From NCBI GenBank assembly GCA_022360445.1, contig JAKSCV010000075.1, forward strand, positions 2,988 to 66,987: a stretch of DNA of 64,000 nt, read 5' to 3'. The notes below the pieces were generated by a model. That model was not told where the DNA came from. It saw only the letters and a program-made list of their open reading frames with translations, and did no database searches. Position 1 is the first letter of the stretch. Each line of letters opens with the position of its first letter. Of the stretch, positions 12,656-42,638 are shown one piece after another. The stretch comes from Gammaproteobacteria bacterium (GTDB lineage Bacteria > Pseudomonadota > Gammaproteobacteria > UBA5861). Made by a program: the position numbers and the translations under genes.

Positions 12656-13789
12656 ATGCTTTCCAGTCGACTCAGAAACATCAACCTCAAACTGCAGCGG
12701 CGAAGCAAACAAGTGATGACTTTATTGAATCCCGAGATACGCGAAAATCTCCAAAAATTTCAAAGTCACCGAAGCACGTTTTACCAGGCCTACTGGCTTA
12801 AAGTCGCAAAAAATATTGGTGCCGAAATTGACAACCTTGGCGATGGTTATTTCCGCCTGTGTAAGAATTCGGTTGTAACCTATGTCCGCGGTGAGTTTGT
12901 CATGCTAGACAACCACTTGGTTTTAAAGCTCTCAGGCAATAAACCCATCATTCATAAAATGCTGACAGGGCTAAATATCCCCGTGCCCCGCTATTGCACT
13001 TATGACCTGCAATCCATGTCCCGTGCGCAGAACATGATTGATGAGCTGGGCGGTGAATTCGTTGTCAAGCCTGCAGCAGAAACCGGCGGCGGTAAAGGCG
13101 TTACAACAAGCATTTCTAATATGAAAATGCTTGGCAAAGCCTCTTTGCAAGCCTCTGTTTTTTCCAGAAATTTAATGATTGAAGAGCAAGTTCCGGGAGA
13201 CTCCTACCGACTGCTTTACCTGAATGGCGAATTGCTTGACGTCATACGTCGCGACCCACCCATTGTCACCGGCGATGGAAAAAGTTCAATCAAACAATTA
13301 ATGAAAAAAGAAACACAAAAACGGGTACACAGCATGCCACTGATTGCACTACACCCGTTAGACCCGGATCTGGAGTGCCAGTTTACTTTAGCCAAACAAG
13401 GGCTATCCCTTTCCAGCACCCCAAAAAAAGGGGAAGTGGTTACAGTCAAACATGCGCCGAACCAAAACTCCTGCTACGAAAATCACATCGTTAAGGACCA
13501 AATTCACCCTTCGATTGTCCGGCTAGGTAGAGACCTGGCATCCATGTTTGGTATTGAGTTGGCAGGCGTCGACTTGATCACACCCGATATCAGCGTGCCA
13601 CTCTCGGAAAGTAAAGGGGTGATCAATGAAATCAATTCAACGCCCGGCTTACACCACCACTACCTTGTGGCTAAAAAAGATAAACGCGCACGAATTGGCG
13701 AAGTCATACTCAACAAAATTTTCGACTCGCAGCAAAAAGTTAATGGGCAGTCCATTTTCAGCAAAAAAAGCCCATCTATTTCGCTCTAA
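12656..13789 (+). CDS. ATP-grasp ligase of the RimK / cyanophycin-synthetase-like branch
   Basis: The 377-aa ORF carries a P-loop-like FVVKPAAETGGGKGVT, ELAGVDLI and a C-terminal EINSTPGLHHH resembling the RimK/CphA EVNxxPG motif. Its start has a GGAG SD. Confidence 0.65.
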   Translation: MLSSRLRNINLKLQRRSKQVMTLLNPEIRENLQKFQSHRSTFYQAYWLKVAKNIGAEIDNLGDGYFRLCKNSVVTYVRGEFVMLDNHLVLKLSGNKPIIHKMLTGLNIPVPRYCTYDLQSMSRAQNMIDELGGEFVVKPAAETGGGKGVTTSISNMKMLGKASLQASVFSRNLMIEEQVPGDSYRLLYLNGELLDVIRRDPPIVTGDGKSSIKQLMKKETQKRVHSMPLIALHPLDPDLECQFTLAKQGLSLSSTPKKGEVVTVKHAPNQNSCYENHIVKDQIHPSIVRLGRDLASMFGIELAGVDLITPDISVPLSESKGVINEINSTPGLHHHYLVAKKDKRARIGEVILNKIFDSQQKVNGQSIFSKKSPSISL

Positions 13790-13861
13790 TGTAGGCATGG
13801 AAGAAAGTCCCACAGAGCTATTAGGGCTCTGGTTATCCGAGAATAAGGGTGACAAATTCTG

Positions 13862-14400
13862 CTGAACGTGCTCACAGAGCTCCAGAATCGCGACGTGAAA
13901 GACATTCTGATTGCTTGCGTTGATGGGCCTTAAGGGCTTCCTCGGCGCCATCAGCGCGGCCTTCCCGGACACCCGGAAGCTCTGCATCGTTCACATGGTG
14001 CGAAATCCAGTGAAGTACATGCCCTGGAAAGACTACCAACCGGACACCGAGGATGAAGCGCTGCTCCCGCTCGATGAATTTTCCGAACGCTGGGATGGCG
14101 AATACCTGCAGATCAGCAAATCATGGCGCTCGCACTGGCATAACCTCACCACGCTGTTCAGCTACCCGGAGGATATCCGCAAGGCGATCTACACGACAAA
14201 CGCCATTGAGTCGCTCAACAACGTCATTCACAAGGCCGTCAAAAAACGGCAGCTGTTTCCAACGGACGATTCCGCGATGAAAGTGATCTACCTGTCGACC
14301 TGGGAGGCGTCGAAAAAATGGACTACCCGATCCGCCACTGGAGGCCTTTACACAGAACTATTTACAGGGTCTAATCAAGCTAGGGAAGGTCACATAATCG
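13862..14400 (+). pseudogene. IS256-family (Mutator-type) transposase remnant, 3' two-thirds only, with an internal frameshift
   Basis: The translation ..LLNVLTELQNRDVKDILIACVDG then, in another frame, LKGFLGAISAAFPDTRKLCIVHMVRN...IYTTNAIESLNNVIHKAVKKRQLFPTDDSAMKVIYL matches the IS256 transposase C-terminal region. There is no N-terminal part and no intact ORF. Confidence 0.75.
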
Positions 14401-14902
14401 ACGAGCTTTCCTTCTGCGACAAAACACCAAGATCTTTATCCACAAAAAAGAGGGATTTCCCTTCTTCCCCCACAAGATCTAATTTATCCAAAATACCTTT
14501 AAATAGCTTTTCTTCTTCATGTTGCTCTGCCACATACCACTGTAAAAAATGGAAAGTAGAGTAGTCTTGAGAAGTAAACGCTACATGTGCTAACTCATTT
14601 ATTTTTTTGGTAATAAATTGTTCATGCTCATACGTTGTTCGAAACACTTCACCCAAACTTTCAAAGTCCGTTCTAGGCGCTTCAATAGTGCCCAAAACAG
14701 GCATCGCACCTGTTTCACTGACGTACGTAAAGAGACGCTGCATGTGTCCCATTTCTTCAACTGCGTGGTCACGCAAAAATGCAGCCGCGCCTTCAAAACC
14801 TTTACTTTCACACCACGCACTCATTTGTAGATATAAGTTCGAAGAATAGAACTCAAGGTTTATTTGTTCATTTAGCTTATCAACCATGGTTTGAGATAGC
14901 AT
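14390..14902 (-). CDS. ftnA: Non-haem ferritin (FtnA-like)
   Basis: The 170-aa ORF ([58 protein letters not shown]...[16 protein letters not shown]) is near-colinear with E. coli FtnA, including the ferroxidase-centre residues. Confidence 0.9.
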
Positions 14903-15164
14903 GGGATACTCCTATAAGTAATCAATTAATTCCCTTTCGAATCAATGTTTATTTAGGCTTTATTACCTCTCGCGGCGACTCTTTCATTAAAATAAATAGC
15001 ATATCAATGCTTTTTACTTTCAATTTCTATTAAGGAGAATAGCCGCAATACCCATGGCTATCAAGGCTGAACTGGAGGCTGCATATGCCTGAAATAACCG
15101 TCTATCAGTTTCAATCGAGTCTGATGAGATGGAACGTTAATTCAAATCCAAAAGGAGCATATCC

Positions 15165-15344
15165 ATGAACAAGACTAATACGATTGGAGTTGATCTGGCA
15201 AAGAATGTTTTTCATCTGCGCATTCAGGATGGCGATTCAGCCTACTTCAAGTACCCATCGGACATCCGTCGGGTAACCTACACAACGAATTCCATTGAGG
15301 CTATTCAATATTTTCGGTTTCCCATACTCGCTTATTCTTCATAA
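15165..15344 (+). pseudogene. Chimeric IS debris: an IS110-family transposase N-terminal fragment fused in frame to an IS256-like C-terminal fragment
   Basis: A good SD (AAGGAG) precedes the ATG at 15165. MNKTNTIGVDLAKNVFHL is the IS110-family N-terminal hallmark, and ..DIRRVTYTTNSIEAIQYF is the IS256 IYTTNAIESLN motif. The ORF stops after 59 codons. Confidence 0.6.
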
Positions 15345-15724
15345 CCAGCTCAGTGCATTGTAGGGTTTTAGCAAATCCGACCAAGCAATAACATTCAGAT
15401 CGAAATACTATCGTATTTAATGCCTCACTAAGACAAAGAGCCGCTATCAAACGGGGCATTTTATGAAGATTGGCACATAATACCCCCAAATAAACATTCG
15501 CATCCAAGAACGTCTTCTTGGTGGTCCTCCACTGGCGAAACAGTGGTCATGGTTAAACGGTGGCCAGTTTACGGTATCCAAACAGCGGACAGTTGGTGCA
15601 TGGTTCAGTCCAGATGGAGAGGCACTTCTCCAAGCTCTGGTCGATGGGGTTTGGGGCAGCGCGGAATGCTCCCCAATAGTGATTGAACGACCACACGTTC
15701 ACTGGTTCATGGCTGGCTCGATGC

Positions 15725-15940
15725 CGAGGGCAGGAAGCGGTGATCTACGCACAGGTGACAATTAACCGGGATGGTACGGTGACAGCTCATCAGCTGACAA
15801 AAGCCAGCTCACACAAAGCGTTGAACCGTAAAGAGATGACGTTGATCAATCGCGCTCAACCTCTACCGCCGCCGCCCAAAGAGGTTGGTGGTGAAACAAT
15901 AGCATTCACGTTGCCCGTCTCATTTTCGCTGAAACGTTGA
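15725..15940 (+). pseudogene. Orphan duplicate of the tonB 3' end (TonB C-terminal domain fragment)
   Basis: The translation RGQEAVIYAQVTINRDGTVTAHQLTKASSHKALNRKEMTLINRAQPLPPPPKEVGGETIAFTLPVSFSLKR is about 85% identical to the C-terminus of the intact tonB at 32028-32762. The nucleotide sequence is also clearly alignable. It has no TM or proline-rich part and no plausible start. Confidence 0.8.
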
Positions 15941-16280
15941 TACCTTGTATCTTGCGCCTTGGAATCAATCTGTAGGAACCTCTGATTAACTCCGTACCGT
16001 TTCCGCACGACCTGTTCGCCGCGGCCCTTAGGGGTTTCAATGGATGTGGCGCAAGTAACCTGCTGAAGTTTGCTGGTGTTCACTCGCAGCGATGCGTGAA
16101 CTCGTTCATATCACCTACTGAGTGCTGAAACACAAACAGCCATTTCGGATTGATTATGCTTGGCAGCCAAGACGGTATCTGACTCGCATTTATTACACAA
16201 ACAATTTTGAAGGGGCATGCAATAGCTGGCGGTACTCCATGTATGGGTTTGGGGATAAATTACTGTTCTTATCTTGCCGT

Positions 16281-16979
16281 TTAGTTGTTTTGTCTGGTTG
16301 TGCAGCATTTGGTGTGTCTTATATCTGCAAGTCTGCCTTTCTCCATCACGCCGACGGTTCCCGCCAGTTGATCGGCTTCTGTCTGACTATGGGTAACCAT
16401 AAGTGTAGTAATTTCCTGTACTTTTAATATGTCACGCACCTCCCGCGCCAGGGTGGTGCGCAACTCGCTATCGAGACTGGAAAAGGGTTCATCCATCAAT
16501 AGCAGTCGCGGGTGTCGCGCCAAAGCGCGGGCCAGCCCGATGCGCTGTTGTTGGCCACCGGAAAGTTTGTGCGGGTAGCGCCGCCCCGAATCGGGGAGGC
16601 CAACCAGATCCAGCAGCATTTGAATGCGCTGTTGTTGTATTTTGCGGGGCAAGCCCACAATGCCGAAGCGAATATTGTCGGCAACATTGAGGTGTGGGAA
16701 AAGCGCAAGATCCTGAAACATCATTCCGATTGCCCGTCGCTCGGGTGGCACTGTGTAACCGGCACGGCTCAGCACTTCACCCGCCAGTGAAATGGAGCCC
16801 GTTTGCAGCGGTTCAAATCCTGCAATGGCTCGCAACAGCGTGGTTTTTCCACAACCACTGGGACCCAACAACGCGGCCAGTTCACCAACAGGCAAGGATA
16901 AACTGAGGTCGCTTACCACGACATCGTCGCCGTAGGCGATGGTCACCGAGTCGATGTTTAAAAATGTGGTATCAGTCAT
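16281..16979 (-). CDS. fbpC: Fe(3+) ABC transporter ATP-binding protein FbpC, apparently lacking the usual C-terminal TOBE/MOP domain (possibly 3'-truncated)
   Basis: The 232-aa ORF has Walker A GPSGCGKTT, signature LSGGQQQRIGLARAL and Walker B LLLMDEPFSSLD. The ORF ends in an atypical tail directly abutting the IS-debris region, whereas FbpC is usually about 340-350 aa. Confidence 0.75.
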   Translation of the reverse strand: MTDTTFLNIDSVTIAYGDDVVVSDLSLSLPVGELAALLGPSGCGKTTLLRAIAGFEPLQTGSISLAGEVLSRAGYTVPPERRAIGMMFQDLALFPHLNVADNIRFGIVGLPRKIQQQRIQMLLDLVGLPDSGRRYPHKLSGGQQQRIGLARALARHPRLLLMDEPFSSLDSELRTTLAREVRDILKVQEITTLMVTHSQTEADQLAGTVGVMEKGRLADIRHTKCCTTRQNN

Positions 16980-18522
16980 GAGGTGTCCTTACTTGTCATC
17001 CGGCTGATCAATATGACCGGCAAAAGTCCTGTAACGACGATTGACAGGGCTGGCAGCCCGGCATCGGCCAGACGTTCGTCGGATGCCATTTCAAAGGCAC
17101 GCACAGCGAGGGTGTTGAAATTAAATAGCCGCAGTATCAGGGTTGCAGGCAACTCCTTGAGCACATCGACGAATACTAGTAACAGTGCGGTCAACAGACT
17201 GCCGCGCAATAGCGGTAAGTGTACTCGCCGCAACACGCCCGAAGGTGACTGTCCCAGCGAGCGCGCTGCATCATCCATAGATGGTGTAATTCTGCCCAGG
17301 CCATTTTCCACAGAATGGAGGGAAATCGCCAGAAAACGCACGGCATACGCAAAAAGCAGAACAAATACCGTACCACTCAACATTAAACCCGTAGAGTAGT
17401 CGAATTGCGCGCGCATGATGGCATCCAGCCGGTTGTCGATCCAGGCAAACGGCAACATCACACCCACAGCGATCACCACACCGGGAATTGCATAGCCCAA
17501 CACAGCGATCTGTGCCGATGTACGTACCAGCATATCCGGCCGAAGACGCTGCGCATATCCGATGATCAGCGCCAGTAACAACGCAAGCAATGCGGCGCCT
17601 GCAGCCAGGGACAGGCTCCGCATTACCAGAAAAAGAAAATCGGTGTTAAACGACTCTTCCGCCGTAACCACACTCCAATAGGCCAGCTGGAGGGTCGGCA
17701 AAATAAACCCCAACAGGATTGGCATAAGGCAGAGAAAACATGCGATCCATTTTTTTACGCCACCCAAGGTGAGCAGCGGACTCTTTATAGCGCGCCTGCC
17801 GCTATGGAAGTGCTGTGCCTTACGCCGCGACCATCGCTCCAGCAGGATAAGCGTGACAACAATCATCAACAGGATGGCTGAAAGCTGCATCGCCACCAGT
17901 TCCTCGCCCATTCCGAACCAGACACGAAACACGCCGGTGGTGAAAGTCGCAACGCCGAAATACTGCACAGTACCGTAATCTGCGACAGTTTCCATCAGCG
18001 CCAGTGACAAGCCGGTGATGATCGCCGGTCGGGCAAGTGGAAACGCGACGCTTCGGAATCGCCGCCAGGCACTGGCCCCCAGGGAGCGTGCGGCCTCATC
18101 CACAACCGGAGGTTGCTCGACAAAAGCGACCCGCGCAAGCATGTAAACGTAAGGGTAGAGCACGAGCGAAAACATCACCGCCGCACCGCCCAGGGAACGG
18201 ATCTCCGGAAACCAGTAGTCGCCATGTTGCCAATTGAACAATTCCCGCAGTGCGGTCTGCAAAGGGCCGGCATAGTCTAACGCGCCAACAGCCACGCTGT
18301 GGTGACGCCGATGGACAGCACGCCGACAGACACCCCCGCAACCAGCCAGAACGTGCTAGAGATATAGTCCGGCAGTACCGTCTCGCTGAGATGCGTCCAG
18401 GCATCGCCAAAAGGGGACAACAAACTTGCCAGGACGACCGTTATCGGCAGGGAAAACAGTAAGGTGATCGCTGTTGCCGATAATGTCCAAGGGTTCATAT
18501 TTGCTGTTGGGCGGGTGATCAT
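16976..18522 (-). pseudogene. fbpB: Fe(3+) ABC transporter permease FbpB, split into two overlapping ORFs (18522-18277 for the N-terminal two TM helices, 18295-16976 for the rest). This implies a frameshift or a sequencing error.
   Basis: The N-terminal piece MITRPTANMNPWTLSATAITLLFSLP..WTHLSETVLPDYISSTFWLVAGVSVGVLSIGVTTAWLLAR ends at a TAG. The remaining 439 aa continue in the -1 frame from a GTG. The EAA motif (DEAARSLGASAWRRFRSVAFPLARPA) sits only about 65 aa into the second piece, so the first piece supplies the missing TM helices. Confidence 0.7.
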
Positions 18523-21779: not shown

Positions 21780-23009
21780 GTGTTGAAAGGTAGTCAGACA
21801 CATATAAGAGGGGTGCGAATAGCCTCGGCCTGCTTGTCGTTGGTCCTCGTTCTTGGTCTCACGGCTTGCGGAGGGGGCAGCTCATCTGGGGGCGATAACA
21901 ACGAACCACCTGCTAATAGCGGGATCGATCAGCGTGCCCTGTTGACGAATTATGCCAGCATCATGCGCCAGGGTTTTGCAGCGCTTGGTGGCAGTGTTGA
22001 TGCGCTTGAGACTTCGGTGATTACCTACTGTGATTCTCTGGGATCCGCTGGAGAACCGGCTGCACGCACCGCTGCACAGGACGCATTCAAGAGTGCGATG
22101 AACGACGTCCAGTATTCCTTGCTCCATAGTGTGGGGCCATCCCTGGAGGACGATCGGATGGTGCAGTTGTACTCCTGGCCGTTAACCAGTAGTTGTCAGA
22201 TCGACCTCAAGCTTGCAAGAAACCTGACCGAACTGAATCTCGCGGTGAACATACGTGGTCTGGATGCCCTGGAATATCTGTTATTTGTCGACCCGGCTGC
22301 AAATCATAGTTGCCCCGCTAGTCTCATCCCCAGCCCACCCGATCTGCTCGATAATTTCGATGCCCTGAGCGCCGACCAGAAGCAGGCGCGGCGTTGTGAC
22401 TTTATGCGCAACGTGGTGGACGATGCTGCGGCATCTGCACAAATTCTGGCGGATGCCTGGGATCCTGCTATTGATGACTACGGAACCACACTGATTAACG
22501 CGGTAAATCCAGCCGAGGCACTGAATGAAGTGACCGACGCCATGTTCTACTTTGAGGAGCTGGTCAAGGAGAACAAGCTTGATCAGCCGCTAGGCGGCCT
22601 CCTTACCAATATCACACCGAGTTGTGGTGCGTGGCAGCCCTGCCCGCAAGATGTGGAGTCACCACACGCCCGTATTTCAAAGGAAAATCTGCGTGTCAAT
22701 ATGATTGCTTTTCAGGAGCTTTATCATGGTGGTGCACCCGATGATACGGATGCGCTTGGTCTGGACGATTGGCTGATCGAAGAGGGAGAGACAGCGCTGG
22801 CAACGAATTTTGGGGATAACATCCAAGCCGTTATCGATGGTCTGGATAACCTCAATGGCACCTTGTATGACGCGATAAGCAACGATCTCGATGCGCTCAA
22901 TGCACTGCTGACGGGTCCGGTGCAGGATGTCAGCATACCGCTGCGTGAAAGTATCCTGCAAGTGCTCGGTCTGAGCCTGCCTCAAGGGTCCGCATCAGAT
23001 ACGGATTGA
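21780..23009 (+). CDS. Imelysin-family lipoprotein (peptidase M75 / IrpA-like, iron-regulated)
   Basis: The 409-aa ORF has a lipoprotein signal (LVLVLGLTACGG). Its imelysin fold pattern includes the LDALEYLLF motif region and a second conserved Cys/His-rich segment. Confidence 0.7.
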   Translation: MLKGSQTHIRGVRIASACLSLVLVLGLTACGGGSSSGGDNNEPPANSGIDQRALLTNYASIMRQGFAALGGSVDALETSVITYCDSLGSAGEPAARTAAQDAFKSAMNDVQYSLLHSVGPSLEDDRMVQLYSWPLTSSCQIDLKLARNLTELNLAVNIRGLDALEYLLFVDPAANHSCPASLIPSPPDLLDNFDALSADQKQARRCDFMRNVVDDAAASAQILADAWDPAIDDYGTTLINAVNPAEALNEVTDAMFYFEELVKENKLDQPLGGLLTNITPSCGAWQPCPQDVESPHARISKENLRVNMIAFQELYHGGAPDDTDALGLDDWLIEEGETALATNFGDNIQAVIDGLDNLNGTLYDAISNDLDALNALLTGPVQDVSIPLRESILQVLGLSLPQGSASDTD

Positions 23010-23158
23010 TACAGTCGGGTGTTACACACAGCTAGAGCACAGACAGCCAGGCTGACAGGCCACGCCGGCCAGCACTTGGTGCAGCAACGGAATGGATATT
23101 GCCCTGCATGCACTGAAGAGGCAGTGCTCGTCTGCGCCGGCACAGGAGTGCCGCGCAG

Positions 23159-24262
23159 ATGAATCTCGGGATTACCAGACGGGGATTTCTAGGGGTGCTT
23201 TGTGCCCTTCCGCTCTTGCCATTACAGGCCAGCGCGTCACGCCAGCGTGGACAGGTATTCGTCAATGGCCATATCGACCGCAACAACACGCACCATATCA
23301 GCGGTTTTGATAGCAACGGCACGGAGTTTTTTCGCCATGCGCTGCCGGATAAGGCCCATGGATTCGCGGTCAATCCCTCGCATCCGGGCCAGATAGCCGC
23401 GTTACCCAGTTTGCCAGGCACCCAGGCGCCGGTGTTCGATCTCAACAGCGGTCAACAGATCGCCCTGATGACCAGCCGTCCGGGTAGACATTTCAATGGT
23501 CATGGCTGTTTCAGTCACGATGGCCGTTATCTGTATACCAGTGAAAATATCGCGGCCAATGCACAAGGCGTGATCGGTGTGCGCGACGGCCGGACATTCC
23601 GTCTGCTGCGTGAATTGCCCGGGCACGGTATTGGTCCGCATGATATTCGTATTCTTCCGGATGACCGGACTCTGGTCGTGGCCAGCGGTGGCATCCAGAC
23701 TCATCCTGACAGTGGCAAACGCGAACTCAATATCAATACGATGCAATCGGCGCTGCTGTATATCGACAGTCGTGACGGCCGTCTGCTGGCACGGCATCAG
23801 CTACCGGTCGATCAATTATCCATCCGTCACTTCGACGTTGGCAGTGATGGGACGGTGCTGGTTGCCTGCCAGTACAAAGGCAACAGCAAACTACCGGCAC
23901 TTGTCGGGGTTCAGCGCGGTGCTACAGGGATCGAAATGCTGGAAATCGACGATGATGACCTTTGGCCTCTGAAACAATACTGCGCCGACGCGAGGATCGC
24001 CGGTAATGGTGTCGGTGCCGTCAGTTGTCCGCGCGGTAATCGCCTGACACTTTGGAACCTCACGGAAAAACGCTTCATCAAGGCGATAGAGATCAAGGAT
24101 GTCGGAGGGCTGGAAGTCAGCCTCGGTGGAAATGCATTCATTGCCAGTGCCAATACCGGCGAGCTGTATCGAATTGACGCCACCAGCCTGACAAGCCGCC
24201 GGATCGGCACGACCTGGAACGGCGCCAAATGGACGAACCACATGGTGAGCAGCGATGTCTGA
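23159..24262 (+). CDS. DUF1513-family periplasmic beta-propeller-like protein with a Tat signal
   Basis: The 367-aa ORF has a twin-arginine motif (RRGFLGVL), and its sequence is colinear with the second DUF1513 gene at 41511-42638 (GVIGVWD/GVIGVRD, GIGPHE/GIGPHD, GGIQTHPD). Confidence 0.7.
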   Translation: MNLGITRRGFLGVLCALPLLPLQASASRQRGQVFVNGHIDRNNTHHISGFDSNGTEFFRHALPDKAHGFAVNPSHPGQIAALPSLPGTQAPVFDLNSGQQIALMTSRPGRHFNGHGCFSHDGRYLYTSENIAANAQGVIGVRDGRTFRLLRELPGHGIGPHDIRILPDDRTLVVASGGIQTHPDSGKRELNINTMQSALLYIDSRDGRLLARHQLPVDQLSIRHFDVGSDGTVLVACQYKGNSKLPALVGVQRGATGIEMLEIDDDDLWPLKQYCADARIAGNGVGAVSCPRGNRLTLWNLTEKRFIKAIEIKDVGGLEVSLGGNAFIASANTGELYRIDATSLTSRRIGTTWNGAKWTNHMVSSDV

Positions 24263-27408: not shown

Positions 27409-27840
27409 TTATTTCACCTGGGCCATGTAGTTTTGCAAGCGGTCCTTGTTCATCGCGAATTGTGCGTTGAGTTCGGTGGTCGCCTTGATCGCAGCATCCT
27501 TGTTAACAGCTTTGCCGACCTGAATAACACCCACCATCGCCAGGGCAGTATGCGGAACACATTTGTACACATAGACACCCTCGGCATCTAACTTGATGCT
27601 AACGTCGTTGTTCAGTTCACCACTCCAGGCTTGGCCTCCAGCAGGCGTATGATGCGAAACCCTGTTGTGGGCTGGGTCAACAGATTTGAGGTGACGGTAT
27701 CCCCCGGTACGACGTTCAGGTAACCAGGCTCAAACACCATCATGCCGTCGGCACCATTGTTCAGCATTTTTACCACATGATCTGCAGCGAATACCTGACT
27801 GCCAGGCAACAACAGCAGCCGCGCGGAAAGATTGATAAAA
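27409..27840 (-). pseudogene. Pseudoazurin (type-1 blue copper protein) pseudogene: no usable start codon and an internal frameshift
   Basis: The minus strand encodes ..SARLLLLPGSQVFAADHVVKMLNNGADGMMVFEPGYLNVVPGDTVT. In another frame it continues KSVDPAHN...GVYVYKCVPHTALAMVGVIQVGKAVN..., giving copper ligands C/H/M in a pseudoazurin-like arrangement. An in-frame TAA lies immediately upstream of the signal-peptide region, and there is a frame break near 27688. Confidence 0.65.
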
Positions 27841-28344
27841 CTCTTTTTTTATTGAGTTCTTCTTGTAGAGATAGCTGATAAAAAGGGTTAAAAAATTGAG
27901 ATGCCAGGCGCGATACAATCGTTGCCGGTAACTTCAGCCGGTCATCCCACCATCTGGCAACGGTAACGCGTGAGACCTCCGACTTCCCTGCATCACACCG
28001 ACGGGTGAAACAGCAGCGAGAAAAGTGGATGAATGCAGGATGTGGCGGAAGCCTGTTTCCCTGGTAAGTAGCAAATCTGTTCGCCAAATTCATTCTCGGT
28101 ATCCAGCACACACCATCTCGCGTCAAGGCCAGGATCGCCAACCACTATCCTGCCTTCAACGCTAATCCCGGTAATGTTGGCTTCACCCTCCTGTGTCATT
28201 GCAGAACCTGGAAATGTCAGAGGATCTGACAAATTTATGTTTTCCAGATCAAATAACCCACGGTAACGTAGAGATGGGCAAGACCGACCTTGCCCTCCTC
28301 CGATGTTAGAACGGACGGCTTTCTTTTATGGATAGCAGCCGCTA

Positions 28345-30590: not shown

Positions 30591-30679
30591 CATATCGCAA
30601 AGTGCATTGCAACCTTCGATCCGCTATCCACACTTGCCGTGCTTCTCGAATTCACTGCCCAGACAGGATTGCCATAACC

Positions 30680-31609
30680 ATGACACAAACCTTCCCCTGC
30701 ACTCACCTTTCTCAGACGAATCGTCATCTGTTGTCGCTGTGGGTATTGGTCTTAACCTTACTTTTGCCAGCCATGGCTCAGCCATCGGATCATGGAAAAA
30801 TGCTTCCCGTATCAGAAAAGCGTTCTGCATCATCAATAGAGTCAGACACCCCTAACGCCACTGATATCGCCCCGCCTCAAACAGAGCAGGCAACATTGCC
30901 GCACAACCTCTCACCCTGGGGCATGTTCATGGGCGCCGATTGGGTGGTTAAAGCGGTGATGATTGGGCTGGCAATCGCCTCATTACTGACCTGGACAGTG
31001 CTGGTTTCAAAGAGCATTGAACTCAGGGCATTGAAACGCCTGTTACGAAGCGATTTGAGCCAACTCAGTACCGTAGGCTCCCTGAAAGATGCGGCCAACT
31101 CCTCTTCCATTTCCGATGCTGGACGTGAGCTGATTAACGCCGCTGAGACTGAATTGAATTTATCAGCAAATCTGGTGAGCCAAGAGGCCGGAAAAGACGG
31201 CATCAAAGAGCGGGTGGTCTCTAGCCTTTCACGAATTGAAGCGGCCTCCGCTCGAGCCATGTTGACCGGTACCGGGCTGCTTGCCACCATTGGTGCCGTT
31301 GCCCCGTTCGTGGGTCTGTTTGGAACGGTCTGGGGCATCATGAACAGTTTTATTGGCATCTCACAGGCCAAAACCACCAATCTTGCTGTGGTTGCACCGG
31401 GCATTGCCGAAGCGCTGCTGGCAACAGCCCTAGGGCTGATTGCAGCGATACCTGCTGTGGTCATCTACAACCACTTCACCCGCCGAATCGCGGTTGCCAA
31501 AGCACTCGTATCAGATAATGCAGCGGCAGTAATGCGGCTGGTATCCCGCGATCTCGATCGGGGGCTATCCCCAAATGTGGCCGTTGTGCAACAACGGGGG
31601 CGCAAATGA
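30680..31609 (+). CDS. exbB: ExbB/TolQ/MotA-family proton channel with a cleavable-looking N-terminal extension
   Basis: The start was chosen at the ATG at 30680 (MTQTF...). The protein is 309 aa, with an N-terminal hydrophobic signal-like segment and then three TM helices typical of ExbB (GLLATIGAVAPFVGLFGTVWGIMNSF). Confidence 0.8.
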   Translation: MTQTFPCTHLSQTNRHLLSLWVLVLTLLLPAMAQPSDHGKMLPVSEKRSASSIESDTPNATDIAPPQTEQATLPHNLSPWGMFMGADWVVKAVMIGLAIASLLTWTVLVSKSIELRALKRLLRSDLSQLSTVGSLKDAANSSSISDAGRELINAAETELNLSANLVSQEAGKDGIKERVVSSLSRIEAASARAMLTGTGLLATIGAVAPFVGLFGTVWGIMNSFIGISQAKTTNLAVVAPGIAEALLATALGLIAAIPAVVIYNHFTRRIAVAKALVSDNAAAVMRLVSRDLDRGLSPNVAVVQQRGRK

Positions 31610-32031
31610 GCATGGGGCTGGGGCAAACAGACAATGATGATGAGCTGCTTGAATCCCACGAAATCAACGTCACGCCGTTTATTGACGTTATGTTGGTTTT
31701 GTTGATTATTTTCATGATCGCCGTGCCCTTGGCCACGGTTGACGTGCCGGTTGATCTACCCACATCGAATGCCAGCAAACAGGATCGTCCCGATACACCG
31801 GTTTATCTGACCATCAGACAAGACCTCAAACTGGCGCTGGGGGACGAACTTGTCAGCCACGACCAACTAGCGGCGAAGCTTGAGCAAGCCACAGGGGGTG
31901 ACCAAGAAACCCGGTTGTTTTTGCGAGCAGATAAATCAGTGGACTACGGCGAATTGATGAACGTAATGAATCAGTTACGTGCTGCCGGGTATTTAAAAAT
32001 TGCACTGGTAGGCCTTGAAGCGACAACATGA
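31606..32031 (+). CDS. exbD: Biopolymer transport protein ExbD
   Basis: The 141-aa ORF carries the INVTPFIDVMLVLLIIFM TM anchor, overlaps exbB by 4 bp and is followed by tonB. Confidence 0.9.
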   Translation: MSMGLGQTDNDDELLESHEINVTPFIDVMLVLLIIFMIAVPLATVDVPVDLPTSNASKQDRPDTPVYLTIRQDLKLALGDELVSHDQLAAKLEQATGGDQETRLFLRADKSVDYGELMNVMNQLRAAGYLKIALVGLEATT

Positions 32032-32762
32032 GCGTCAACGTTTACCAGCGAATTTTGCAAAAACCCACACTGCGTTGGGGCGGGTCATTTTTTAGCGTGA
32101 CCGCTGTTTATGTTTGCCTGGTGTTTATTGCATTGAGTTGGCGCTCAGCGGTCGACCGTATACCTGCTCCACCCGAGGCAGTCATGATGGTCGACTTGGA
32201 GCCTCTGCCAGCAGCCCCCTCTACTTCAGCCCCTATGCCAACAGAACCGGAACCCGAGCCAGAACCCGAGCCAGAACCCGAGCCAGAACCAGAGCCAGAA
32301 CCAGAACCAGAACCAGAGCCTGTACCAAAGCCAAAACAGGTAGAACAAGTGAGGCCACCCATCACAGAGGAGCAAACCCAGGAAAAGGAACGCGCGTCTG
32401 CTGATACCGAAATACCACCGGCGCTGAAGAGCGCTGCCCAAGCAGGCTCTACATCACCGTCACAGGCCGACGCAGTCGCTACCTGGCACTCGATGTTGCT
32501 GGCGCACATTGAACGCTACAAACGTTACCCAAGACAGGCCCGCCGCCGAGGACAGGAAGCGGTGATCTACGCGCAGGTGACGATTAACCGGGATGGTACG
32601 GTGACAGCTCATCAATTGACAAAACCCAGTGCCTATAAAACATTGAACCGAGAGGTACTGGCGCTAATCAGCCGCGCTCAACCTTTACCGCCCCCACCCA
32701 AGGGAGTTGGGGGAGAAACAATAGCGTTCGTGCTGCCCGTGTCATTTTCGCTGAAACGTTAA
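32028..32762 (+). CDS. tonB: TonB energy transducer with an (EP)n proline-rich spacer
   Basis: The 244-aa ORF has an N-terminal TM helix, PEPEPEPEPEPEPEPEPEPEPEPEP and a C-terminal TonB domain (..ETIAFVLPVSFSLKR). It is translationally coupled to exbD. Confidence 0.9.
   Translation: MSVNVYQRILQKPTLRWGGSFFSVTAVYVCLVFIALSWRSAVDRIPAPPEAVMMVDLEPLPAAPSTSAPMPTEPEPEPEPEPEPEPEPEPEPEPEPEPVPKPKQVEQVRPPITEEQTQEKERASADTEIPPALKSAAQAGSTSPSQADAVATWHSMLLAHIERYKRYPRQARRRGQEAVIYAQVTINRDGTVTAHQLTKPSAYKTLNREVLALISRAQPLPPPPKGVGGETIAFVLPVSFSLKR
32225..32325 (+). repeat. In-frame tandem repeat (GAA/G CCN GAG CCA units) encoding the (EP)n spacer of TonB
   Basis: Runs of gaaccagagcca / gaacccgagcca are visible directly. 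This is coding and is not a CRISPR array. Confidence 0.8.
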
Positions 32763-32813
32763 TACTGTCCTCTTAATTTCATCACTAGCGCTGTTTTCAA
32801 AAAGGGAGCCTCT

Positions 32814-37646: not shown

Positions 37647-38903
37647 ATGAAAAAATTTATTGCGTTACTTGCCGGCATTGCACTGAGCACCAGTGGGTGG
37701 GCAAAAACAACGGAAAAAGCTGTTCTCACACACTACGCTGATTTAGCTCATGCTATGTATCAGGACTCACTGATCACAGCCCAGGCACTCCATAAAGCAG
37801 TGAAGCAATTAGCCGCTCAACCCACGGAAGCCAATCTCAACCATGCAAAAGTTGCTTGGAAAGCCGCCCGTGTCCCCTATCAGCAAACAGAAGCCTACCG
37901 CTTTGGCAATGCCATCGTTGATGACTGGGAAGGCAAAGTCAACGCATGGCCACTGGATGAAGGTCTGATCGATTATGTCGATGGCAGTTATGGCTCAGAG
38001 TCCGATGAGAACCCCTACTACACGGCTAACATCGTCGCCAATGAAAAACTCATGATTGGTGGCCAAAGCATTGATACCGGCAACATTACCAAAGCGCTTC
38101 TGTCCGATACTTTGCACGAAATTGATGAGGTTGAGTCAAATGTTGCCACAGGTTATCACGCCATTGAATTCTTACTGTGGGGGCAAGATTTGAATGGTAC
38201 CCAAGCTGGTGCAGGTAAACGCCCTGCCAGTGATTTTTCTAACGAAAACTGCACTGGAGGTCACTGCGATCGCCGAGTCGCCTATCTTCTCGCCACGACC
38301 GAATTACTCGTTGATGAACTCAACTGGATCACATCTCAATGGGCCAAAGGTGGAGATGCTCGCAAAGCCCTGATGGACGGCGACAGCAAAGCAAGCATCG
38401 GCACTATTTTGACCGGGCTAGGCAGCCTCTCCTATGGCGAGCTGGCCGGAGAGCGAATGAAGCTCGGAGTCATGCTGCACGACCCGGAAGAAGAACACGA
38501 CTGCTTTAGCGACAATACGCACTGGTCACACTATTACGATGCTATGGGCATAAAAAATGTTTATACAGGCCGTTACACGCGCGTTAGCGGTGAAACACTC
38601 AGTGGCCCCAGCGTCTCATCACTGGTGGCCAAGAAAGACGCAAAGGTCGATCAGGCGCTACGTGATCAAATTGAAACTACACTGGCCAAAATGCAAGTCC
38701 TGGTCGATAGCGCTGAAAAAGACAACGTTGCCTACGACCAGCTCATCGCAGAAGGAAATACCGCAGGAAACGCCAAGGTAATGGATGCTGTTAACGCGCT
38801 TGTTGCGCAAACCAAAGGAATCGAAAGCGCAGTGGCTACTTTAGGGCTCAACCCTATTGAGTTCGAGGGCTCAGATAGCCTTGATGCACCGCATAAAGTC
38901 TAG
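37647..38903 (+). CDS. Imelysin-family lipoprotein (IrpA/IcmP-like)
   Basis: The 418-aa ORF has a signal peptide plus the GYHAIEFLLWGQD (GxHxxE) imelysin motif. Confidence 0.75.
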   Translation: MKKFIALLAGIALSTSGWAKTTEKAVLTHYADLAHAMYQDSLITAQALHKAVKQLAAQPTEANLNHAKVAWKAARVPYQQTEAYRFGNAIVDDWEGKVNAWPLDEGLIDYVDGSYGSESDENPYYTANIVANEKLMIGGQSIDTGNITKALLSDTLHEIDEVESNVATGYHAIEFLLWGQDLNGTQAGAGKRPASDFSNENCTGGHCDRRVAYLLATTELLVDELNWITSQWAKGGDARKALMDGDSKASIGTILTGLGSLSYGELAGERMKLGVMLHDPEEEHDCFSDNTHWSHYYDAMGIKNVYTGRYTRVSGETLSGPSVSSLVAKKDAKVDQALRDQIETTLAKMQVLVDSAEKDNVAYDQLIAEGNTAGNAKVMDAVNALVAQTKGIESAVATLGLNPIEFEGSDSLDAPHKV

Positions 38904-38963
38904 CCCACACAAGGTAGCGTTGTAAAAGCACAGCGCTACCGCCCCGTTTAGCCAGGTTTATCC

Positions 38964-40412
38964 ATGAAACCCAGTCAACACATGAGTCTCGCCGTGCTGC
39001 TAATGCTCTCAACTCTAACGGCAAAAGCCGATCTCCCGGCACTGACGAATAATTTCACTCAGCCGGAAACGGGTGAAGCTTACCCCGGTGGAAAAAGCAC
39101 TTCTACCCGACCTGCTGACAAGCGGGCGTACTCACACCCCAGCACTAACATGAAGCCTGAGCGCAAACTGGATTTCACCTTAGGCAAAGCGATGTTTAAA
39201 CGCCTGTGGGCTTCTGCGCCAACCACCACACAGGCAGCAGATGGCCTTGGCCCACTATTCAATGCTCGGTCCTGCTTGCAATGCCACCAAGGTAATGGCC
39301 GTGGCAAACCCCAGGCACAGGCTGGAAAAACCGATCCTTCCTTTTTTTTACAACTCAGTATTTCCGGCCCGGCAAACACGCAGAAAACAACACACACCCC
39401 GCCCCCTGAACCCACCTATGGCCACCAATTGCAACCTTTTGCCGTGCGGGGATTACCAGCAGAAGGACAGGTTCGAATCACTTACGAGTCGATCCGCGTC
39501 CCGCTCGCTGATAACGAAGTCATCACGCTTCGCAAACCCCGTTACGAGATCACCCAGCTAAACTATGGTCCACTTCATCCAGACACACTCACGTCACCAC
39601 GCATAGCCCCCCAACTGATCGGGTTAGGCCTGCTGGGCGCCATTCACCCGAAAGATCTCGAATCACTGGCCGACCCTGGCGACAACGACCAGAATGGAAT
39701 TTCGGGTCGTATCAACCACGTCTGGAGCGAGCAACACGATGCGCTCAAGCCAGGGCGATTTGGCTGGAAAGCAAGCACCGCCAGCATCAACGAACAAACA
39801 CAAAAAGCCTTCTTTTTCGACATCGGCCTATCCACACCTCTGTTTAAAAGCGGTGCAGGCGAGTGTACCCCGACACAGGCCGCTTGCCAGTCCCTGCCGA
39901 ATGGCAACTCTCCCCAATACGAAGACCTGGAAGCCCACTCAGACATTACTAACTGGACCGCACTTTATACACGTAACCTGGCCGTTCCTCAGCGTAGAAA
40001 TTTCAATGACGCGCGTGTTCTCAGTGGAAAGCAGTTGTTTTACCAAAGCGGTTGCACAGCGTGCCACCAACCTAAATTCATAACCCGTGATGATCCCGTC
40101 GACCCGGAACATGCCCGCCAACTGATCTGGCCGTATACCGATCTACTGTTACATGACATGGGTGAGGACTTGGCCGACCACCGGCCTGTTGCCGGCGCAA
40201 GCGGACGGGAGTGGCGCACAGCACCGCTGTGGGGGATCGGCTTAAGCAAGACGGTTAATGGCAACAACAACTTTCTGCACGATGGCCGCGCCCGCACCCT
40301 GCTGGAAGCTATCCTATGGCACGGTGGTGAGGCTGCTGACTCACGCAAGAAGATTGTCAATATGACCCGAACACAACGTGCGGATTTAATTCTGTTTATC
40401 GAATCCTTGTGA
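38964..40412 (+). CDS. Dihaem c-type oxidoreductase of the DUF1111 family (the putative thiol oxidoreductase / peroxidase-like partner of imelysins)
   Basis: The 482-aa ORF has a signal peptide and two CxxCH haem motifs (CLQCHQGNG and CTACHQP). Confidence 0.7.
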   Translation: MKPSQHMSLAVLLMLSTLTAKADLPALTNNFTQPETGEAYPGGKSTSTRPADKRAYSHPSTNMKPERKLDFTLGKAMFKRLWASAPTTTQAADGLGPLFNARSCLQCHQGNGRGKPQAQAGKTDPSFFLQLSISGPANTQKTTHTPPPEPTYGHQLQPFAVRGLPAEGQVRITYESIRVPLADNEVITLRKPRYEITQLNYGPLHPDTLTSPRIAPQLIGLGLLGAIHPKDLESLADPGDNDQNGISGRINHVWSEQHDALKPGRFGWKASTASINEQTQKAFFFDIGLSTPLFKSGAGECTPTQAACQSLPNGNSPQYEDLEAHSDITNWTALYTRNLAVPQRRNFNDARVLSGKQLFYQSGCTACHQPKFITRDDPVDPEHARQLIWPYTDLLLHDMGEDLADHRPVAGASGREWRTAPLWGIGLSKTVNGNNNFLHDGRARTLLEAILWHGGEAADSRKKIVNMTRTQRADLILFIESL

Positions 40413-40422
40413 GGAAACAGAT

Positions 40423-41508
40423 ATGCTCCATAAAAGACTTGTTCAACGGCTGCTGCAAAGCCTGGGGTTTCTCAGCGTACTGACGTTTACAGCCAGTGTA
40501 CACGCTGAACCCAACTGGAAAAGCCTTAACCAGGCAGTGATCGACCAACATATCTTGCCACGCTATCAGCAACTGCAAACCGATACTCAAGCACTTGCGC
40601 AAGCCACAACACTTTTTTGCACTCAACACACCCGTTCGACCTTTGATCAACTGAAAGCCACTTACCAGCACACAATGGATAGCTGGATGGCTATTCAGCA
40701 TATTCGCTTTGGCCCTGTAGAGGCTTCACTGCGCTACTACCGCTATCAAATCTGGCCAGACAAACACAACACAGGGACCAAACAACTCCAGCGTCTGCTG
40801 AAGAGCGAAGATCTGAAACGACTTGAGCCCAAGCAGTTTGCACAAAGCAGTGTTGCCGTTCAGGGTTTGACCGCACTGGAGCGCCTGCTTTTCCCAACAG
40901 CACTGGATCTGGGGCAATTTGGGTCCCCTCAGGCACCCAGCTACCACTGTGAACTGATTTTGGCCATTGCTCGGAATTTGGCACTCATGTCGTCGGCAAT
41001 CGTTACCGACTGGACAGTCAGTGAAGTGCCTTACCGTACACGCGTCCTCACTGCCGGGCCAGAGAGTGATGATTTCACCAGTCACAGAGAAATTGCGAGC
41101 CAATGGCTCAACAGCATTAGCACGCAGCTCCAGGTGATCACCGAACAAAAATTGCTTCGTCCACTCAAACGTTTCCGTTTAAAGCGTGCAGAATCCTGGC
41201 GGAGCCGCCGCTCACTGGACAATATTTTTTTGAACCTGCACGCCATCCGTGAGCTCTACGCGATAGGCCTAGCACCCAAATTACCTGAAGATCCGTTAGA
41301 CAACGCGATCAAAAAAGCGTTTGACCAGGCCATCACCTCGATCACAGCACTCGATACCCCGCTTTATGACATCAAACAGGACTCACCAGAGGCCAAGAAG
41401 CTGGAAAAAATACTCGCCGATGCTCGCCAATTGACGGCATTAGCCTCCTCTGAGCTGCCCCAGGCCTTGGGTCTATCGCTGGGATTTAACAGTTTGGACG
41501 GTGACTGA
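40423..41508 (+). CDS. Imelysin-like protein (second paralogue, lacking the canonical HxxE)
   Basis: The 361-aa ORF has a signal peptide and a GLTALERLLF motif region, positioned as the third gene of the conserved imelysin-DUF1111-imelysin-like-DUF1513 arrangement. Confidence 0.6.
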   Translation: MLHKRLVQRLLQSLGFLSVLTFTASVHAEPNWKSLNQAVIDQHILPRYQQLQTDTQALAQATTLFCTQHTRSTFDQLKATYQHTMDSWMAIQHIRFGPVEASLRYYRYQIWPDKHNTGTKQLQRLLKSEDLKRLEPKQFAQSSVAVQGLTALERLLFPTALDLGQFGSPQAPSYHCELILAIARNLALMSSAIVTDWTVSEVPYRTRVLTAGPESDDFTSHREIASQWLNSISTQLQVITEQKLLRPLKRFRLKRAESWRSRRSLDNIFLNLHAIRELYAIGLAPKLPEDPLDNAIKKAFDQAITSITALDTPLYDIKQDSPEAKKLEKILADARQLTALASSELPQALGLSLGFNSLDGD

Positions 41509-41510
41509 CC

Positions 41511-42638
41511 GTGCCCATAACCCGACGCCAGTTTATGCTCGCAGCGACCGGTTTTTCGCTGCTGTATACAGGCACGATTAGGCGTAGCGGACACAGCAGT
41601 ACCCAGTACCTGAGTGCTTACACCGATGCAAAAGGCGATGACTTCATCAGTGGCTTTAACCAAAAAGGGAGCTTCCAGTTTCAGACGCCCCTGCCCAGCC
41701 GAGGGCATGCCATTGCCGTATCGCCCGTCACTCAAGACGCCGTCGCTATTGCCCGCAGACCCGGTCGCTACTTAATTGTTATTGATACAAGAACGGGCCA
41801 AATACGGCACACTCTGGAAAGCCATGCTGGGCGACACTTTTATGGCCATGGCGTCTTTTCGCAGGATGGACGGTGGTTCTACACCACGGAGAATGACTTT
41901 ACCAGTGGACAAGGGGTGATTGGTGTATGGGATGCTCAACGAGACTACCAGTTAGTGGACACATTTTTATCCTACGGTATCGGTCCACATGAGCTGATCA
42001 TGCTCTCAGATGGCCAGACACTCGCTGTGGCGAATGGCGGGATTCAAACACACCCCGACACCGGCCGGGCCAAATTAAACCTTGAACAGATGCGGCCGTC
42101 TCTCACCTACCTTGACAGCCGCCGAGGCACTCTTCTGGAGCAACAGCACCTCCCACCGCTGTGGCACAAAAACAGTATCCGGCATCTGGCATCTACCCCG
42201 GATGATTGTATTTGCTTTGTCATGCAATACCAGGGACAAGCCAGCGTGGCACCATCACTGGTCGGCCTTCACCGGAAAGGTCAACCGGTTCAGTTACTTT
42301 ATGCACCACCCACAATTCAAAAAAATATGCGCAATTACTGCGGGAGCGTTTGTGCCGATACCTCGGGGACAATATTTGCGGTCTCTTCACCCAAAGGGGG
42401 GATTGTAACTTTTTGGCGCGCGAAAGACGGCCAGTTTTTGGGACACAGCAAGCTGATTGATGGTTGCGGCATTGCCAGAGGCCAACAGCCTGGCATGTTT
42501 TTATTGAGTAACGGTGCCGGGCACCTGGTCCACATCCAGGTCAATCAGCAGCAGTTAAACACAACGTTGACCACTCAAAAATCCCAAATACACTGGGACA
42601 ACCACATGACGCATATTCCAGTTTCATCATTCGGATGA
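41511..42638 (+). CDS. DUF1513-family protein with a Tat signal
   Basis: The 375-aa ORF has RRQFMLAATGF and is colinear with the paralogue at 23159-24262. Confidence 0.7.
   Translation: MPITRRQFMLAATGFSLLYTGTIRRSGHSSTQYLSAYTDAKGDDFISGFNQKGSFQFQTPLPSRGHAIAVSPVTQDAVAIARRPGRYLIVIDTRTGQIRHTLESHAGRHFYGHGVFSQDGRWFYTTENDFTSGQGVIGVWDAQRDYQLVDTFLSYGIGPHELIMLSDGQTLAVANGGIQTHPDTGRAKLNLEQMRPSLTYLDSRRGTLLEQQHLPPLWHKNSIRHLASTPDDCICFVMQYQGQASVAPSLVGLHRKGQPVQLLYAPPTIQKNMRNYCGSVCADTSGTIFAVSSPKGGIVTFWRAKDGQFLGHSKLIDGCGIARGQQPGMFLLSNGAGHLVHIQVNQQQLNTTLTTQKSQIHWDNHMTHIPVSSFG

Follow-up and report, generated by a model that had tools for sequence, protein, structure and literature searches.

We study a stretch of DNA, from 13.8 to 16.3 kb of a window of 64,000 nucleotides, in which an intact ferritin gene is surrounded by pieces of insertion sequences (IS) and by a fragment of a tonB gene. 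The window is the whole stretch of DNA that was analyzed, and it comes from a contig of 73,934 bp of a metagenome-assembled genome. Our reading, to which we give a probability of about 0.8, is that positions 13.8 to 16.3 kb form the decayed junction between the native chromosome and a segment of about 18.5 kb, rich in guanine and cytosine (GC) and carrying genes for iron acquisition: stepwise deletions fused pieces of several elements around a ferritin gene that was kept. None of the fragments is able to transpose or to encode a working protein. The core of an initial annotation of this DNA, which saw non-functional debris of several mobile elements and a gene fragment around an intact ferritin gene, next to a truncated fbpC, thus stands. 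Some of its details have to be revised.

The leftmost piece, at 13794..14372 on the forward strand, is the remnant of an IS256-family element that covers residues ~189 to 377 of a transposase of 402 amino acids: the element has lost its left half and its left repeat. The conceptual translation of positions 13791-14400 matches the Pfam profile Transposase_mut (PF00872) with an E-value of 1.3e-35, or 123 bits against a cut-off of 21, and the match covers only positions 195-377 of the 379 positions of the profile. In a tblastn comparison, the remnant aligns with residues 192-377 of the 402 amino acid IS285-type transposase of Yersinia pestis pMT1, with 53% identity; two annotated transposases of the IS256 family are 53-55% identical to it. 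At the DNA level, blastn matches it to IS256-family genes in 839 plasmid records, with 65-70% identity.

The lesions of this copy are numerous. Two frameshifts, near positions 13860 and 13928, flank the interval 13862-13930; a gap in the alignment, right after the residues WKDY, reveals a deletion of 11 codons near position 14034; one nucleotide is deleted near position 14325; and the loss of about 65 bp, close to the end, took the last 20 codons or so. With at least three frame breaks and two deletions, there is no complete transposase in a single open reading frame (ORF). The family and the frameshift had been recognized in the initial annotation, but the loss is larger than the 5' third that it gave: about the first 190 codons, or about half, are gone. 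The right terminal inverted repeat is kept at 14347-14372 (TTTACACAGAACTATTTACAGGGTCT) and aligns with the terminus of IS285-type elements. Since this repeat survives, it fixes the original right boundary of the element, 17 bp from the stop codon of the ferritin gene. Even with up to 6 mismatches allowed, the window contains no copy of the left-end repeat, and the remnant thus has a repeat at its right end only. With the left end deleted, it also has no pair of flanks left that could carry a target-site duplication of 8-9 bp. Its left edge is at most 5 nucleotides from the stop codon of the upstream ATP-grasp gene. This copy is a dead remnant.

Of the whole debris field, the ferritin gene, at 14390..14902 on the reverse strand, is the one gene that looks functional. 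It encodes an FtnA-type protein of 170 amino acids that had been described as intact, and both types of comparison agree: the Pfam profile Ferritin is matched from position 2 to position 141 of its 142 positions (E-value 1.4e-41), which amounts to the full-length fold, and residues 1-170 align with PDB entry 3qz3 (6e-91), residues 1-162 with Escherichia coli FtnA (1eum). By eye, all the residues that we take to form the ferroxidase centre in E. coli FtnA are present: E17, Y24, E49/E50, H53, E94, E126, Q127 and E129/E130. Upstream of the gene, the region 14903..15134 is unrelated to the IS110-family element discussed below, and a promoter scan predicts a promoter-like site there, at 15064-15036 of the minus strand.

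The identical ferritin gene, with the same flanking junctions, is present in three short contigs that were assembled independently from metagenomes. Compared with the longest metagenome variant, the window has no difference in the 513 nucleotides of the ferritin gene and 8 differences in 430 nucleotides of the IS256 remnant (Fisher p = 0.002); variant L001 of the remnant has 7 single-nucleotide substitutions and a frame-breaking insertion of 2 bp at position 14134. An invariant ferritin gene beside a varying remnant is the pattern expected of a selected gene beside a neutrally drifting pseudogene: within the environmental population, the debris field has become fixed and yet continues to drift.

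On the other side of the ferritin gene, an ORF of 59 codons (15165-15344, forward strand) is made of two fragments joined in frame. The first is the 5' stub of an IS110-family element, at 15135..15231 on the forward strand: it comprises 30 bp of the left end, including the ribosome-binding site, and the first 22 codons (MNKTNTIGVDLAKNVFHLRIQD). This stub is 97-98% identical to positions 2230-2326 of contig L045 and 1884-1980 of contig L046, two unrelated metagenome contigs. The similarity begins at position 15135, which is 30 bp upstream of the ATG, and stops abruptly at 15231, after codon 22; nothing else around it is related to the element, and a complete, transposable IS110 copy is thus absent. 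Taken alone, the 22 codons have no Pfam match and only a weak tblastn similarity with residues 4-30 of IS1618 (E-value 0.04). The assignment nevertheless appears sound, because the DNA of the stub is the start of an element, on L045, whose translation across frameshifts matches both DEDD_Tnp_IS110 (PF01548, 4e-11, from residue 7) and Transposase_20 (PF02371, 2e-14). These relatives, at 2230-3252 of L045 and 1884-2302 of L046, are also degenerate, with several frameshifts and an internal deletion, and their context is different: they follow an ORF of 115 amino acids, near a fatty-acid hydroxylase gene. They are the sole relatives that were found, and none of the copies of this IS110 element that were encountered is intact.

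The second part of the ORF belongs to a second IS256-family transposase fragment, at 15237..15310 on the forward strand, about 20 codons that correspond to residues ~319-341. With two different transposases as queries, tblastn within the window matches positions 15243-15305 to residues 321-341, with E-values of 5e-4 and 3e-3. The two IS256 pieces overlap in the region of the transposase that they cover, and only 35 of 54 nucleotides (65%) are identical there: they therefore come from two different elements. A composite transposon, in which two IS256 copies would flank the ferritin gene, was rejected on these grounds. The first 97 bp of an IS110 element abutting an internal fragment of an IS256 transposase do not form a native junction, and we infer that a deletion made the joint. 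The initial annotation was thus right about the composition of this ORF (a ribosome-binding site, an IS110 start and an IS256 tail), since both parts are identified by sequence matches; the insertion of one IS into the other, one of the two routes that it suggested, is not shown by the junction.

Further to the right, the list of three kinds of debris proposed earlier, all of them real, must be extended by one that it missed: the interval 15492..15726, on the forward strand, is a truncated copy of a non-coding module, roughly the first half of about 430 nucleotides. It is 84-87% identical to positions 3675-3832 of contig L051, 4854-5112 of L050 and 2417-2218 of L052. In the other copies the module runs about 200 nucleotides further; the copy of the window ends at about 15719-15726, where the similarity with tonB begins, and a stretch of 13 nucleotides at the joint, 15714-15726, resembles both sources.

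The tonB piece, at 15714..15943 on the forward strand, preserves the 3' part of a second tonB gene, with the C-terminal domain, or the last 72 codons or so, and the stop codon. The resident tonB, at 32028..32762 on the same strand, is intact; it is the last gene of the group exbB-exbD-tonB and matches the Pfam profiles TonB_C, TonB_2 and TonB_N. When the debris region is compared with the whole window by blastn, the 3' end of this resident gene is its only other match: positions 15715-15943 and 32537-32765 are 82% identical over 229 nucleotides (E-value 3e-61), and the proteins are 84% identical over 70 residues, in good agreement with the value of about 85% given at both levels in the initial annotation. 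This match includes the intervals 15725-15940 and 32544-32762 whose alignment it proposed, and its 82% is above the 60% under which the similarity was to be ascribed to chance. The C-terminal domain is recognized in the fragment by TonB_2 (2e-11) and TonB_C (6e-9). The transmembrane and proline-rich parts, which provide the membrane anchor and the spacer, are absent: similarity starts around codon 170 of the resident gene. Over 70 codons, the two copies have 17 synonymous and 11 non-synonymous codon differences, and the ratio of non-synonymous to synonymous rates (dN/dS) lies between 0.11 and 0.23, depending on the method, with P = 1e-4 against neutrality. The synonymous divergence (dS) is about 0.5-0.7, differences are scattered across the whole 213 nucleotides, and the frame of the fragment is still open throughout the homologous part. 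Since the differences are mostly synonymous, most of the divergence arose while both copies were under purifying selection. On this sequence evidence, the fragment is the remnant of a second, once functional tonB, either a paralogue or a foreign copy, and not a recent duplicate in the course of decay.

The damage extends to the first genes of the iron segment. The fbpC-type gene of an ATP-binding cassette (ABC) transporter, at 16281..16979 on the reverse strand, encodes 232 amino acids, of which residues 1 to ~217 are homologous to other such ATPases, followed by an unrelated tail of 15 residues. The nucleotide-binding domain is complete (ABC_tran, PF00005, 9e-36, residues 23-166). All of the 11 closest genomic relatives, 53-62% identical, align only up to residue ~214-217, and their stop-to-stop frames extend about 60-150 codons further: the C-terminal extension is missing here. 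No leftover 3' sequence of fbpC was found between 13.7 and 16.4 kb. The suspicion that this gene is truncated on the side of the debris is thus borne out, with the last 60-150 codons or so gone. Next to it, the fbpB-type permease gene (16976..18522, reverse strand) is split in two frames, of 81 and 439 amino acids, with a break at 18277-18295; tblastn with the homologue from L020 switches from frame -2 to frame -1 at 18283-18289. With fbpC truncated and fbpB frameshifted, the Fbp-type ABC importer is most likely non-functional. The frame break of fbpB may be a sequencing error of the metagenome-assembled genome; together with the truncated fbpC, it suggests a pseudo-operon.

The debris field sits at a change of composition. 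The GC content is 0.46 on the left, 0.53 in the interval 16.3-33 kb, and 0.48 beyond 45 kb; tetranucleotide usage correlates at 0.88 when the two outer segments are compared, and at 0.43 when the left segment is compared with 16.3-33 kb. The left 9 kb contain clpP, tig, four tRNA genes, gltX, and genes for a pseudouridine synthase, FBPase and PFK; on the other side, parC is found at 34.9 kb, followed by a second imelysin/DHOR/DUF1513 cluster. Between the two, from 16.3 to 34.8 kb, the iron segment contains fbpCBA, DUF4856, imelysin, DUF1513, two TonB-dependent receptors, exbB-exbD-tonB and a PepSY protein. The initial annotation had placed a recombination scar at this compositional boundary, and the debris does lie there, but the side that it called an AT-rich cassette is native backbone, judging by its composition and by housekeeping genes such as clpP, tig and gltX: the GC-rich iron segment is the atypical part, and it was probably acquired horizontally.

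The simplest account of how the field formed is as follows. At least five separate sequences once stood at this site: one element of the IS110 family and two different ones of the IS256 family, a portion of an integrative island, and a second tonB. Successive deletions would then have fused internal pieces of these elements together; we propose deletions because none of the joints is a native end of an element, except at the right repeat of IS256 and at the left end of IS110. On one side, deletions would have ended where the upstream ATP-grasp gene stops, at its stop codon, and 17 bp beyond that of the ferritin gene: those that harmed either gene would not have been tolerated, and ferritin alone, within the debris, would have been kept by selection. 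On the other side, deletions would have taken the 3' end of fbpC, in an operon that was dispensable and is now damaged. Both the order of these events and the role of illegitimate recombination in the deletions are inferred.

Several facts weigh against this reconstruction. The atypical composition of the iron segment may be due in part to the membrane and secreted proteins that it encodes, and not to a foreign origin. About 520 bp of the field match nothing that was searched: these are the spacer 15311..15491, which has no Pfam, Rfam or protein-database match in any frame, and the spacer 15944..16280, which separates the tonB fragment from the truncated fbpC and has no Pfam or Rfam match. A concatenated six-frame query of both spacers found no homologue among 5.8 billion proteins. 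More generally, Rfam gives no match, at E-values up to 1, across 13000-17000. A close relative with the ancestral arrangement was not found in a genome scan with fbpC, the best relative being 62% identical, and consequently the history cannot be reconstructed by comparison. Finally, the DNA comes from a metagenome-assembled genome in which some junctions have no independent confirmation: the coverage by independent contigs is limited to 13945-15465, and no retrieved contig spans the junction at 13790 or the interval 15465-16300. One candidate was tried in the right-hand spacer and rejected: for positions 16150-16290, proposed as the tail of an ISL3-family transposase, Pfam at E-values up to 10 gave nothing.

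This last point leads to the alternative that contigs of different genomes were wrongly joined through an IS-like sequence, in which case the boundary and part of the debris would be unreal. The nature of the source and the shift in GC content and tetranucleotide usage near 16 kb speak for such an artefact, as do the partial coverage just mentioned and the fate of the look-ups: exact searches with the flanking proteins returned nothing, or contigs of less than 2 kb only, and a pattern of junction-spanning DNA had no match in the JGI metagenomes. However, the composition of the left-hand side returns after about 45 kb, with parC already at 34.9 kb, and a chimera would thus need two misjoins. 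The fragments are short, decayed and unique within the window, unlike the long exact repeats that cause misassemblies. The same three internal junctions, between the IS256 end and ferritin, between ferritin and the IS110 stub, and between IS110 and the second IS256 fragment, recur in independently assembled metagenome contigs from several samples. We consider a misassembly improbable. Still less probable is the idea that the fusion gave rise to a genuine new small gene, the 59-codon ORF, expressed from the ribosome-binding site of the IS110 transposase gene. That site exists, as an AGGAG 7 nucleotides upstream of the ATG; the identical ORF is annotated in GenBank as hypothetical protein MCG8382941.1 (MJA28_12145, Gammaproteobacteria bacterium), and it is present in several metagenome samples, with one variant that changes P to S. 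Yet the ORF has no Pfam match of its own, the two transposase fragments that compose it are without most of the catalytic residues, and the divergence is too small to detect selection on it. Beyond its own population, the only homologue is a 38 amino acid protein, encoded on L045 and L046, that shares the first 22 residues, from the IS110 N-terminus, and continues with a different tail. The ORF is an accidental in-frame fusion that inherited the ribosome-binding site of IS110.

The presence of two tonB 3' ends invites two other explanations, each of which we regard as very unlikely. One is that the fragment was copied recently from the resident gene, with the same orientation and on the same contig, and has decayed since: the identity of 82% is compatible with it. 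But a neutral decay to a divergence of 18% should have produced an excess of non-synonymous differences and stop codons or indels; the frame is open across the homologous part, and the predominance of synonymous differences, 17 against 11, with the low dN/dS, contradicts it. The other explanation is that the two 3' ends are attachment-site duplications, the iron segment having entered the 3' end of tonB by site-specific integration, or through a single crossover, and having brought a replacement 3' end. There are precedents: phage 21 and e14 integrate at icd in E. coli and supply a replacement 3' end. The two copies, at 15714-15943 and 32537-32765, are indeed direct repeats that bracket most of the GC-rich segment, they share an identical run of 32 nucleotides, and in both of them similarity ends 3 nucleotides past the stop codon. 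The geometry, however, is wrong. At icd, the displaced partial 3' copy lies downstream of the restored gene, whereas here the partial copy, without its 5' part, lies upstream, and the complete gene at the far end, 16 kb on. Pfam detects neither an integrase nor a recombinase domain in the 12 large ORFs that were scanned from 16.3 to 34.8 kb, a scan that left aside exbD (31606-32031) and the gene-poor interval 26.7-28.3 kb. Moreover, the divergence of the two copies is spread over all of the 213 nucleotides, with the high dS given above, and the left edge of the fragment is fused to the unrelated island module, which indicates a deletion. A junction eroded by deletions, in which a second tonB was lost except for its 3' end, thus remains our reading.

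The non-coding module deserves a separate discussion, as a lead and not as a finding. Copies were collected from six contigs: at 15492-15726 in the window, 4853-5290 in L050, 3675-4101 in L051, 2104-2417 on the reverse strand of L052, ~400-800 in L053 and ~500-900 in L054. A long central core, which starts at 15594 in the window, is identical in the six copies save for a few single-base differences. In L050, the module lies between Gabija-type genes (an OLD-like TOPRIM ATPase and a UvrD helicase) and a group formed by an ORF of 100 amino acids, an HTH_17 (AlpA-like) gene, a tyrosine integrase and a tRNA-Val; in L051, it is beside SIR2 and Piwi genes; in L052, beside Xre/M78, 5-hmdU kinase and MazG genes. 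The module is thus at the border of variable cargo, for defence or DNA modification, in these three contigs, and in an integrase-bearing island in one of them, L050. Positions 106-219 and 4853-5270 of L050 correspond to positions 6-119 and 3682-4101 of L051: the shared sequence lies on both sides of different cargo, Gabija-type genes in one and SIR2 and Piwi genes in the other, which is the pattern of a cargo-exchange hotspot.

For the alignment of the six copies, RNAalifold predicts a structure of ten helices in which 95% of the cells are paired. Eight base pairs change on both sides and keep pairing, and several G-U pairs favour the forward strand. None of 500 shuffled controls reaches the observed values, and structures with slid partners are far worse. 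Single-base indels in L052 exclude a coding role. There is no match in Rfam, neither for 13000-17000 nor for the module-bearing part of L050, and none in collections of plasmids, phages or viral contigs. It is tempting to conjecture that the module belongs to an undescribed family of structured non-coding RNAs of about 430 nucleotides, or that it is a structured DNA site; we hold this only tentatively, the more so as six related sequences are too few. The half-copy of the window is dead and says nothing on function.

The same interval has suggested protein-coding readings. Positions 15481-15729 form an open frame of 83 amino acids, and a protein search with it gave short hypothetical proteins, 67-79% identical over about 45 residues and with unrelated flanks. 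Matches of this translation to WD40 repeats were discarded as motif-level noise (the motif FSPDG), the best matches being short spurious ORFs over a conserved DNA element. Similarly, a C-terminal LysR remnant at 15510-15690 was rejected: Pfam at E-values up to 10 gave nothing, and the region is the non-coding module.

Three other observations concern the iron segment itself. A frameshifted pseudoazurin pseudogene is found at 27412-27848 on the reverse strand, in the gene-poor interval 26.7-28.3 kb: its joined two-frame translation matches solved pseudoazurins with an E-value of 3e-21, and the rest of this 1.6 kb stretch has no long ORF. Such a pseudogene inside the segment fits a general decay. 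Imelysin and DUF1513 occur together in two clusters, one in the iron segment, at 21780-24262, and a fuller one, with a di-haem oxidoreductase, after parC, at 37647-42638; these may reflect functional redundancy of acquired and resident iron systems. Finally, the exbB-like ORF at 30602-31609 encodes 335 amino acids and matches MotA_ExbB only at residues 195-298: either its N-terminal extension is unusually long, or its start codon is mis-set.

In practical terms, the iron locus of this genome probably has no working Fbp-type iron(III) ABC importer at its edge. The ferritin gene is maintained. For the 59-codon "hypothetical protein" and the tonB-like ORF, the proper annotation is debris of pseudogenes. 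The field also marks where, on the left, an iron-uptake segment of probable horizontal origin begins. All this is ordinary genome decay, unsurprising to a specialist, with fragments of the well-known families IS256, IS110, TonB, ABC ATPase and ferritin. The only lead is the non-coding module, which might help to delimit a family of defence-carrying islands, or to explain its regulation.

Each piece can be set against the system from which it derives. The C-terminal half of the transposase is 53-55% identical between the remnant and IS256-family proteins, among them that of the IS285-type copy of Y. pestis pMT1, and the end of IS285 aligns with the right terminal sequence TTACACAGAAcTATttACAGGgTC of the remnant; unlike these elements, the remnant has neither the N-terminal half nor the left repeat, and it carries several frame breaks and deletions. 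The IS110 piece shares the N-terminal motif IGVDLAKNVF of its family, whose alignment with the DEDD_Tnp_IS110 profile, in the related element of L045, starts at profile position 1, and a 5' end, including the ribosome-binding site, that is found with an IS110-family element in another genomic context. In contrast with members such as IS1618, 97 bp alone survive in the window.

For the module, the closest setting is that of islands with an integrase, AlpA and anti-phage cargo beside tRNA or tmRNA genes, such as the Pseudomonas tmRNA islands (PMC12595487); P4-like satellite hotspots (PMC9122126) are a further example. The surroundings of the module in L050, with HTH_17, integrase and tRNA-Val, and the cargo of L051 are similar to these. 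A conserved non-coding module is not mentioned for the tmRNA islands in the main text of PMC12595487. Unlike these islands, the window has a fragment of the module only, with no integrase, tRNA or cargo nearby.

As for the field as a whole, pseudogenes and IS debris are common at the borders of genomic islands in decaying or IS-rich bacterial genomes. There as here, deletions join truncated elements of several types, genes nearby lose their function, and a single gene under selection persists. Compared with the usual debris of island borders, the field has nothing distinctive; its density is high, with five fragment types in 2.5 kb.

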